Program-made: the position numbers and the translations under genes | Notes under the pieces: generated by a model | Databases searched by the model: none | Told to the model about the DNA's origin: nothing | Seen by the model: the letters and a program-made list of their open reading frames with translations, nothing else | IMG/VR virus record: IMGVR_UViG_2687453188_000002 | DNA length: 47,998 nucleotides | Reading direction: 5' to 3' (one strand) | From: a virus | Taxonomy: Duplodnaviria > Heunggongvirae > Uroviricota > Caudoviricetes | In this document: piece by piece, positions 45,191 through 46,594 of the stretch | Numbering within the stretch: position 1 is the stretch's first letter | Layout of the letters: every line of letters begins with the position of its first letter

Positions 45191-46594
45191 ATGACAGTAA
45201 AAATTTCTGGCGTGCTTAAAGATGGCACAGGAAAACCAGTACAGAACTGCACCATTGTGCTGAAGGCCAGACGAACCAGCAGCACGGTGGTGGTGAACAC
45301 GGTGGCCTCTGAAAATCCGGATGAAGCCGGACGTTACAGCATGGATGTTGAGCATGGTCAGTACAGCGTCACCCTGCTGGTTGAAGGTTTTCCGCCTTCA
45401 CATGCCGGGACCATCACCGTGTATGAAGATTCCCGACCCGGTACGCTGAATGATTTTCTCGGTGCCATGACGGAGGATGATGCCCGTCCTGAGGCACTGC
45501 GCCGTTTTGAACTGATGGTGGAAGAGGTGGTGCGTAACGCAGAGGAGGCGAAGAAGAATGCCGGAGAGGCGGAGACGTCAGCGAGGAATGCCGGCATATC
45601 AGCCAGTCAGGCAGAAGAGAGCGCTGCAAATGCTGACACTTCAGCAGGGGATGCATCGGAGTCAGCCCGGCAGGCGGCAGAAAGTGCAGCCTCAGCAAAG
45701 CAGTCAGAGGAGGCGTCATCGTCCTCGGCCTCTGCGGCCGCTCAAAAAGCCAGTGAGTCATTACAAAGTGCAACAGATGCTGAGTTGTCAAAAAAGACGG
45801 CAGAAAGTGCAGCCGGTAATGCAGCCAGGGATGCAACGACCGCAACAGAAAAAGCCCGGGAGTCAGCAGAAAGCGCACAGTCAGCGGAACAAAGCAGGAT
45901 AGCGGCGGAAGAGGCCGTAAACCGAATCCCCACCGTGGTGGGGCCTCCCGGGCCAAAGGGGGAACCGGGGCCCGCGGGTCCTCAGGGGCCGAAGGGAGAT
46001 AAAGGAGAGCGTGGCGACACCGGCCCGGCAGGGGCAACCGGTGAACGGGGGCCGGCAGGTGATGCTGGTCCGGCAGGCCCGCAGGGGCCGAAAGGCGACA
46101 GGGGAGAGACCGGTCTGACGGGAAATGCAGGTCCTCAGGGACCTAAAGGGGATGCGGGAGCTGCAGGCCCGGCAGGGCCACAGGGACCGAAAGGGGATAC
46201 GGGAGCTGCAGGGCCGGCAGGTCCTCAGGGACCTAAAGGGGATGCGGGAGCTGCAGGCCCGGCAGGACCACGGGGACCGAAAGGGGATACGGGAGCTGCA
46301 GGCCCGGCAGGACCACGGGGACCATCCGGAAGCCCTGACAGCGGGCTGTTTGGTGTCGGTTCTTTTGTTCTTGCGGCGTATTACCAGACGCATTATTCGG
46401 GGGACCGTGCCCCTGGCTCAACTGTTGCCGGGTCATCACTGTCTGCATGCTGCCTTTCGAATGGTACTCCCCTGGTTGCTTCCGGTAATGTGGGGGAGAC
46501 CCGTTTACCGGGCACGTGGCGTGCATGTGGTCCGATGCTATGGACATCATCTCCGGGTATCAGACAGGCAGGATTATTTCAGCGCATATCATAG
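45191..46594 (+). CDS. Side tail fibre protein with collagen-like Gly-X-Y repeats
   Basis: 467 aa: N-terminal prophage tail-fibre domain ([24 protein letters not shown]...), an Ala/Ser/Glu-rich coiled region, then about 43 Gly-X-Y triplets ([26 protein letters not shown]...). Confidence 0.7.
45938..46325 (+). repeat. Collagen-like GXY repeat region with near-identical tandem DNA repeats
   Basis: Inside the tail-fibre gene. DNA units such as ggtcctcagggacctaaaggggatgcgggagctgcaggcccggcagg recur with few substitutions between about 46120 and 46320. Coordinates approximate. Confidence 0.6.

Follow-up and report, generated by a model that had tools for sequence, protein, structure and literature searches.

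A probable collagen-like stalk in a prophage side tail fiber of Escherichia coli O104:H4: in-frame length differences and a conserved stop codon

Lambdoid phages, some of which move Shiga toxin genes, are thought to reach a wider range of hosts by means of their side tail fibers. In phage lambda, the side tail fiber is an accessory that speeds adsorption, and in Ur-lambda, the gpV/gpM junction of the tail is ringed by four trimers, 12 copies in all, of the Stf collar domain (PMC12617516). Collagen-like proteins of EHEC prophages, EPclA to EPclD, were described by Ghosh et al. (2012, PLoS One 7:e37872; PMC3368898). EPclA, examined by CD, AUC, and EM, was a trimer with a collagen triple helix and had the shape of a dumbbell of approximately 55–60 nm, and its PCoil and PfC domains were found to trimerize (PMC3368898). 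The Col lengths varied in multiples of three, and the modularity of these proteins was considered to fit recombination among prophages (PMC3368898). The entry for EC55989_1078 (strain 55989) in Table 3 of that study is EPclC* (PfN-PCoil-Col-PfC2), with 467 aa in total, a PCoil of 116 aa and a Col of 140 aa; experimental characterization among the EPcl types covered EPclA and EPclB only, and not EPclC* (PMC3368898).

Here we analyzed a stretch of 47,998 nucleotides (IMG/VR record IMGVR_UViG_2687453188_000002; hereafter, the window), for which an original prediction made from the letters alone had pointed to a recombination-prone collagen-like tract in a side tail fiber gene. This gene, stf at 45191–46594, is of the EPclC* type and was thus already described as a type in 2012. 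We assign a probability of roughly 0.85 to the reading that its tract forms a triple-helical collagen stalk in a side tail fiber built as a trimer, that the distal repeats of this stalk vary in frame, and that the stop codon behind it is genuine. Such an assignment is useful for telling which part of the fiber gene may change length and which is a joint for tip exchange, both of which were known in outline for the EPcl family.

Domain layout and prophage context of stf

The stf gene (45191..46594, plus strand) encodes 467 aa, followed by a TAG stop, and its protein was 100% identical to WP_050033886.1 of HUSEC2011. Pfam assigned aa 1–133 to PF08400 with E=2.7e-68, and this segment (45191..45589, plus strand) is PfN, the N-terminal tail-attachment domain. 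Within PfN, aa 1–94 matched a 94-residue chain named "tail fiber protein" in PDB 9E7M/9MGH (E=9.5e-49), which is the collar domain of Ur-lambda Stf (PMC12617516), and no lambda Stf chain was matched beyond aa 94 in the PDB search. The N-terminal half of stf matched three places in the O104:H4 genome, which contains other stf paralogues.

Next to PfN lies PCoil, a low-complexity segment at 45527..45940 (plus strand, aa 113–250). Its edges are only approximately placed, and its start falls within the last part of the segment that Pfam assigns to PfN. Ala, Ser, and Glu together made up 61% of aa 113–250, and Leu, Ile, and Val only 7%, in agreement with the Ala/Ser/Glu-rich region that had been noticed before the repeats. 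Because this composition fits that of the EPclA PCoil, which is alpha-helical and trimerizing (PMC3368898), the PCoil of stf is probably a trimeric coiled coil.

PCoil is followed by Col, 44 uninterrupted Gly-X-Y triplets at 45941..46336 (plus strand, aa 251–382), in which Pro occupied the X position of 24 triplets and the Y position was mostly Ala, Lys, Thr, Gln, or Arg. Pfam also recognized collagen (PF01391) in the protein with E=7.7e-21. The tract is real and far beyond chance, and the roughly 43 triplets predicted at 45938–46325 needed correction only by one triplet, by 3 nt at the start, and by 11 nt at the end. By homology to EPclA, the stf fiber is expected to be a trimer containing a triple helix. 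The near-identical tandem units of about 45 bp that had been predicted for the tract, however, were confined to its distal half. Tandem Repeats Finder detected a 45-nt period at 46127..46323 (plus strand) only, with 4.4 copies, 90% matches, and a score of 310; each copy encodes a 15-aa unit whose last four residues are [AT]GAA. The same array could also be read with a 90-nt period, in which the copies were 97% identical. The four proximal 45-nt blocks (45941–46120), in contrast, shared only 61–64% identity with the repeat reference. Exact repeats in the window reached at most 50 nt at an offset of 90 and 34 nt at an offset of 45.

The antisense ORFs across the tract are by-products of its GGN-CCN periodicity. 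The minus-strand ORF at 45881–46393 has a frame without a stop through the tract and encodes 12% Pro and 19% Arg, the ORF at 45414–46037 on the minus strand encodes 18% Pro, and the remaining two minus frames through the tract, with 24–33% Pro, contain stops. Their earlier dismissal as a repeat artifact was thus correct, although calling them strongly Pro-rich somewhat overstated the 12% and 18% Pro of the listed ORFs.

The C terminus of stf is formed by PfC2, an 85-aa tip domain at 46337..46591 (plus strand) that ends in ...AGLFQRIS and is conserved in both length and ending. PfC2 had no family match in Pfam or PHROG, and the Pfam search did not find PF06820 (PfC) in the stf protein. An AlphaFold2 monomer model of PfC2 together with the five triplets before it, calculated from an 8-row alignment, was poor, with a mean pLDDT of 50.7 and short beta strands only. 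The PfC2 tip is rare. Searched alone against 1.84 billion representatives, it gave only five matches, two of which were distant fibers with the same ending, and against a set of 5.8 billion proteins it again gave only five, all of which were partial proteins cut within the repeats.

The queried region from stf to the DUF4376 gene was 100% identical to the chromosomes of E. coli O104:H4 HUSEC2011 and FWSEC0009. The corresponding interval of HUSEC2011 is a complete lambdoid prophage, from integrase to dinI, integrated beside yecD/aspS. The local gene order is gpJ (40977–44372), lom (44440–45039), stf (45191–46594), the DUF4376 gene, a frameshifted ykgJ-like remnant, and dinI. The position after J and lom, the PF08400 N terminus, and the match to the Ur-lambda Stf collar together support the predicted identity: 45191–46594 is a side tail fiber gene in an E. 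coli O104:H4 lambdoid prophage.

The stf stop codon and the downstream putative chaperone gene

The original prediction had further suggested that the tail behind the repeats may hide a frameshift. If so, this tail would be out of frame and the gene would continue into 46516–47211 via a frameshift or programmed slippage, in line with the 79-nt overlap shared by the two ORFs (46516–46594) and with the downstream start that PGAP places at 46540 in HUSEC2011, before the stf stop. Comparison of homologues, however, refuted this reading, to which we attach a negligible probability. The 85-aa tail ending in ...AGLFQRIS, together with its stop, was kept in 14 of 15 loci, and the exception (L015) is frameshifted and belongs to a prophage in which gpJ is broken too. 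In a distant fiber of 652 aa, too, the tail was 45% identical and closed with GLFQRIS. Furthermore, codon positions 1, 2, and 3 in the stf frame accounted for 18, 7, and 31 variable sites of the tail, respectively, a bias toward the third position. The O104 group and L007 end stf with TAG, whereas the remaining loci use TGA and are one base shorter, and the downstream frame relative to stf is therefore not conserved; consequently, the 46516–46602 extension of the downstream ORF was not conserved as protein and read as unrelated peptides in the homologues. A single ORF joining the stf and DUF4376 frames was found in no homologue compared, and in most homologues PGAP itself places the downstream start past the stf stop.

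The downstream gene (46606..47211, plus strand) encodes a putative tail-fiber chaperone of the DUF4376 type. Its protein of about 200 aa matched PF14301 (DUF4376) at aa 81–188, in the C-terminal half, with E=1.3e-16, and phrog_1141 with E=1.1e-79. A Shine-Dalgarno sequence, GAGGAGG at 46594..46600 (plus strand), begins on the final base of the stop codon of stf (46592–46594) and was present in all 15 loci. The conserved start is GTG at 46606, five bases past AGGAGG; ATG at 46603 is an alternative start in most homologues, but this codon is AGG in L012 and L016, in which the GTG is retained. The PGAP start at 46540 is probably a longest-ORF artifact, and the start annotated for this gene in the source genome is probably wrong. 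From the comparison of homologous loci, we conclude that stf ends at a genuine conserved stop and that the downstream gene initiates separately. DUF4376 proteins are annotated as tail-fiber chaperones in Alteromonas phages V22 (gp27) and A5, and a DUF4376 protein is needed for fiber function in the Campylobacter CJIE1 prophage (PMC10579305, PMC7882524). By position and family, the protein encoded here would be the cognate chaperone of the PfC2 tip.

Repeat number among relatives

We determined tract length as the distance between the unique flanks 45191–45940 and 46337–47211 in ten genomes, in each of which both flanks were at least 99.4% identical, and all triplet counts were taken from finished assemblies. 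The gap between the flanks was 396 nt (44 triplets) in HUSEC2011, FWSEC0009, and 55989; 486 nt (54 triplets) in JE86-ST02 and O111:H21 15A; and 531 nt (59 triplets) in C227-11, 2011C-3493, FDAARGOS_349, FDAARGOS_403, and an rpoS mutant. The copy number variation predicted across related prophages was therefore found among ten near-identical copies, even if the case within the outbreak clone may be an assembly collapse (see below). Repeat number was also far from identical over a wider range of relatives. Among 14 intact PfC2-type loci, the collagen run adjoining PfC2 comprised 37, 42, 43, 44, 48, 52, 54, 57, 58, or 59 triplets.

The composition of the arrays was compared by unit maps, in which one letter stands for each distinct 45-mer. 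The window read A B C D E F G H, C227-11 read A B C D E F G I F G H, JE86-ST02 and 15A both read A B C D E F E J I K, and 55989 read A B C D E L I K. The proximal units were thus constant and the distal units reshuffled. In most loci, the mean identity of units within an array was 0.88–0.93, versus 0.81–0.89 between lineages, and in L011, L013, and L014 the within-array identity was not in excess; where it is higher, it would fit recent duplication inside the arrays. Taken together, the sequences support a tract length that differs among close relatives in whole in-frame units. Since 45 nt is divisible by nine, adding or removing entire units preserves both the reading frame and the Gly register.

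We also considered the tract as a contingency locus that switches the fiber on and off by phase variation. In the P0107 and P0108 homologues, the tail reads in a collagen frame that is shifted; in P0096, the collagen run is followed by an aberrant tail of 30 aa, maybe due to a nearby frameshift; and Ghosh et al. list EPclA* copies with loss of frame (PMC3368898). Nevertheless, the repeat unit of 45 nt is a multiple of three, all length variants of intact loci were in frame, and the tract is without homopolymers or short-unit repeats of the kind that switch genes on and off. The frameshifted copies, moreover, stand in visibly decaying prophages, such as L015 with its likewise frameshifted gpJ, or are maybe sequencing errors. 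We rejected phase variation on the basis of the 45-nt unit and the in-frame variants, and consider it very improbable.

The 59-triplet allele differed from the window sequence by an added 135 bp, exactly three units and in frame; its ORF remained open, encoding 512 aa with the same stop. Annotation pipelines wrongly label this longer intact allele as a pseudogene. Neither the 467-aa nor the 512-aa stf protein had an exact entry in a collection of 15 billion proteins. When the window was aligned with the long allele, the prefix was identical up to 46311 and the suffix identical from 46155, and the 135-bp difference from C227-11, 2011C-3493, and the FDAARGOS strains can therefore be placed anywhere within 46155..46311 (plus strand), an ambiguity of 157 nt. 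Accordingly, the 59-triplet allele holds an exact 157-nt repeat at an offset of 135.

We consider it an even bet that the 44-triplet tract of the window is an assembly collapse, in which case 59 triplets would be the true outbreak allele and the polymorphism within the clone technical. Five of the seven outbreak-lineage assemblies had the 531-nt gap, and the difference is exactly one 135-nt copy within a 157-nt perfect repeat, longer than typical short-read k-mers. FWSEC0009 was built short-read-first as a Unicycler hybrid and polished with Illumina reads (PMC6787312). More than 120 protein fragments from draft assemblies begin within repeat units; three clusters in the database, of 16, 95, and 11 sequences, consist of such partial proteins starting inside the 15-aa units, indicating that draft contigs commonly break in the tract. 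On the other hand, HUSEC2011 and FWSEC0009 were produced independently and both gave 44 triplets, the FWSEC0009 assembly also used 110x MinION reads (PMC6787312), and deletion between 135-nt direct repeats would be an easy real event too. A literature search returned no report of a 135-bp indel and no account of the HUSEC2011 (HF572917) assembly. We regard it only as a tentative proposal, with the odds against it, that the difference of 135 bp (three units, approximately 13 nm) between HUSEC2011 and FWSEC0009 and the five 2011 outbreak assemblies reflects a real event within the O104:H4 clone. If it does, stalk length would change on an epidemic time scale, and the repeats would serve both as a fast in-frame length dial and as a crossover site for tip swaps. 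A collapse, if true, would remove the within-clone case only; the 44-, 54-, and 59-triplet alleles differ in unit order, and the comparison between lineages is hence unaffected. The repeat number reported for stf depends on the assembly.

Tip exchange, the proposed stalk, and known systems

The tract also coincided with the limits of homology between stf and other fiber genes. Compared with the stf of Stx2 phage 1717, identity was 91–100% from the start codon to approximately 46216 and about 30% thereafter, and the top 25 phage matches all stopped at query position 1027, that is, at 46217. The PfC2/DUF4376 part was found in no phage record of the searched collection at the stringency used. From the other side, in E. 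coli loci that have only the tip and chaperone in common with the window, the match started at query positions 873–946 (46063–46136). Since homology ends inside the tract from both sides, the tract is also a mosaic joint. The tip-plus-chaperone cassette occurred at the right end of prophages at no fewer than five integration sites. Among the 120 best protein homologues, the same N-terminal half was joined to three unrelated C termini, with 4–61 triplets overall: 9–38 before a Peptidase_S74-type C terminus, 4–37 before PfC (PF06820), and 22–61 before PfC2.

The architecture, the repeat structure, the length polymorphism of assemblies, the homology breakpoints, the conserved stop, and the independent downstream start were read directly from the sequences, and from these we propose how the fiber may be built and how it may vary. 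Four trimers would be anchored at the tail collar by their PfN domains, with PCoil and Col as a two-part stalk, and PfC2 would cap the C terminus as a trimerizing and presumably receptor-binding knob, folded with the help of the DUF4376 protein. Unequal homologous recombination or replication slippage could alter the length of the stalk while the gene stays intact. The repeats that stf has in common with fiber genes carrying other N-terminal halves or tips would likewise offer the homology for joining the PfC2 and DUF4376 cassette to other shafts. Calculated at 0.29 nm per residue, the figure used by Ghosh et al. (PMC3368898), the stalk would measure approximately 38 nm with 44 triplets and 51 nm with 59, and would gain approximately 4.4 nm per 45-nt unit. 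Such differences in stalk length might in turn affect adsorption.

Of the described systems, EC55989_1078 of strain 55989 resembles the window stf most closely in its length of 467 aa and its PfN-PCoil-Col-PfC2 layout. The gene region shares 99.1% DNA identity with the window, and PfC2 differs at a single residue (H/Y). The distal part of the array, however, differs, the units being ABCDELIK in 55989 and ABCDEFGH in the window, and the 55989 copy lies in a prophage at tRNA-Ser/hyaA, whereas the window prophage lies at yecD/aspS. The EPclA-type stf genes of O157:H7 (ECs2717) and Stx2 phage 1717 have the same PfN-PCoil-Col layout as the window stf but carry the PfC tip (PF06820) instead of PfC2 and another downstream gene, and the collagen run of phage 1717 has 37 triplets.

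Ur-lambda Stf is similar to the window stf in its genome position after J and lom, in its collar domain, homologous to aa 1–94, and in being followed by a chaperone gene; the putative chaperone of the window, in contrast, is DUF4376 (PF14301) and not Caudo_TAP. The lambda Stf has a gp37-like shaft and an OmpC-binding tip and is not known to contain a collagen tract, and its Tfa chaperone belongs to a family other than DUF4376. More distantly, tandem DNA repeats likewise encode the Gly-X-Y tract of streptococcal Scl, Bacillus BclA, and the hyaluronidase of streptococcal prophages, and BclA and a hyaluronidase were weak PDB matches to the stf tract. Repeat number in these three proteins varies between strains, and their flanking domains and biological roles are unrelated to those of stf.

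Length variants and broken copies of the collagen tract

The counterpart of the window side tail fibre gene stf (45191-46594) in E. coli C227-11 and FDAARGOS_349 (L002:4001-5539 and L003:4001-5539) is an allele with 59 Gly-X-Y triplets. PGAP called this allele a pseudogene in both strains ("incomplete; missing C-terminus"), with the feature ending at locus position 5059. Its reading frame is nevertheless open over 512 aa and ends at the same stop as that of the 467-aa window stf. The pseudogene label looks like an annotation artefact arising from the longer repeat.

Three database entries (P0126, P0127, and P0128, with 16, 95, and 11 member sequences behind them, respectively) are partial "collagen-like" or "phage tail" proteins whose first residue falls inside the 15-aa repeat units; the collagen tract is a routine break point of draft assemblies. 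A shorter variant with the same type of C-terminal tip domain, PfC2, was found on 11 contigs (P0001; 401 aa, 22 triplets), and its N-terminal half closely matches the window protein. Its tract runs from unit 1 straight into the distal repeats and lacks the unique proximal units; this could be due to a deletion with GPQGPKGD motifs as its end points or to collapse of the assembly. Loss of frame was also observed. The copy of strain MLI104K2 (L015:1565-2701) carries a frameshift in PfC2, and gpJ of that prophage is broken too. Two homologues (P0107 and P0108) have C-terminal tails in a shifted collagen frame, and in another (P0096) the collagen run is followed by an aberrant 30-aa tail, which may stem from a frameshift nearby. 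EPclA* copies that have lost the frame were listed by Ghosh et al. (2012; PMC3368898) as well.

Signals and gene starts around the fibre genes

On the plus strand, lom is bracketed by two strong terminator-like hairpins that have T-runs, at 44391-44410 (8 stem pairs) and 45143-45172 (13 stem pairs). The gene resembles an insulated moron. The second hairpin ends 18 nt upstream of the stf start codon, and expression of stf would require read-through, for example via a Q-modified polymerase.

For the putative chaperone gene downstream (DUF4376), the HUSEC2011 annotation places the start at 46540, giving a 55-nt overlap with stf. Within 46516-46608, comparison with homologues points to GTG 46606 as the probable start; AGGAGG stands upstream of it at 46595-46600, with a 5-nt spacer. 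At the position of the alternative ATG 46603, two homologues have AGG and one has GTG.

Immediately downstream of the DUF4376 gene, the minus strand carries a terminator-like hairpin with eight T behind it (47222-47241). The hairpin is located at the 3' terminus of a YkgJ-family gene remnant that has a frameshift (CxxCxxCC, PF03692; 47354-47614, minus strand). This gene is intact, at 330 nt, in other prophages (L007, L010, and L014).

Elsewhere in the window, a cluster of three prophage tRNA genes (18474-18725, plus strand) carries anticodon CAT, Arg-TCG, and Arg-TCT; the CAT tRNA is assigned to Met by ARAGORN and to Ile by PGAP. Downstream of this cluster lies a carbohydrate esterase gene of the SASA family (about 19216-21069).

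Spread of the tip-plus-chaperone cassette

Lambdoid prophages at no fewer than five chromosomal sites have the same tip-plus-chaperone cassette at their right end, as judged by the flanks of stf-DUF4376 in L001, L006, L007, L008, and L011: yecD/aspS, tRNA-Ser/hyaA, potB, ompW/yciE, and prfC. In 55989, the near-identical copy is located at tRNA-Ser/hyaA, which differs from the site in the O104:H4 outbreak lineage. Some E. coli prophages (e.g., NZ_CP147059.1 2187777-2190222) carry a different and longer fibre module, in which a PfN-type fibre gene comes first, then a gene for a "receptor recognizing protein Gp38", a further gene with a tail-fibre domain, and then a DUF4376 gene, and which has only its two ends in common with the window module.
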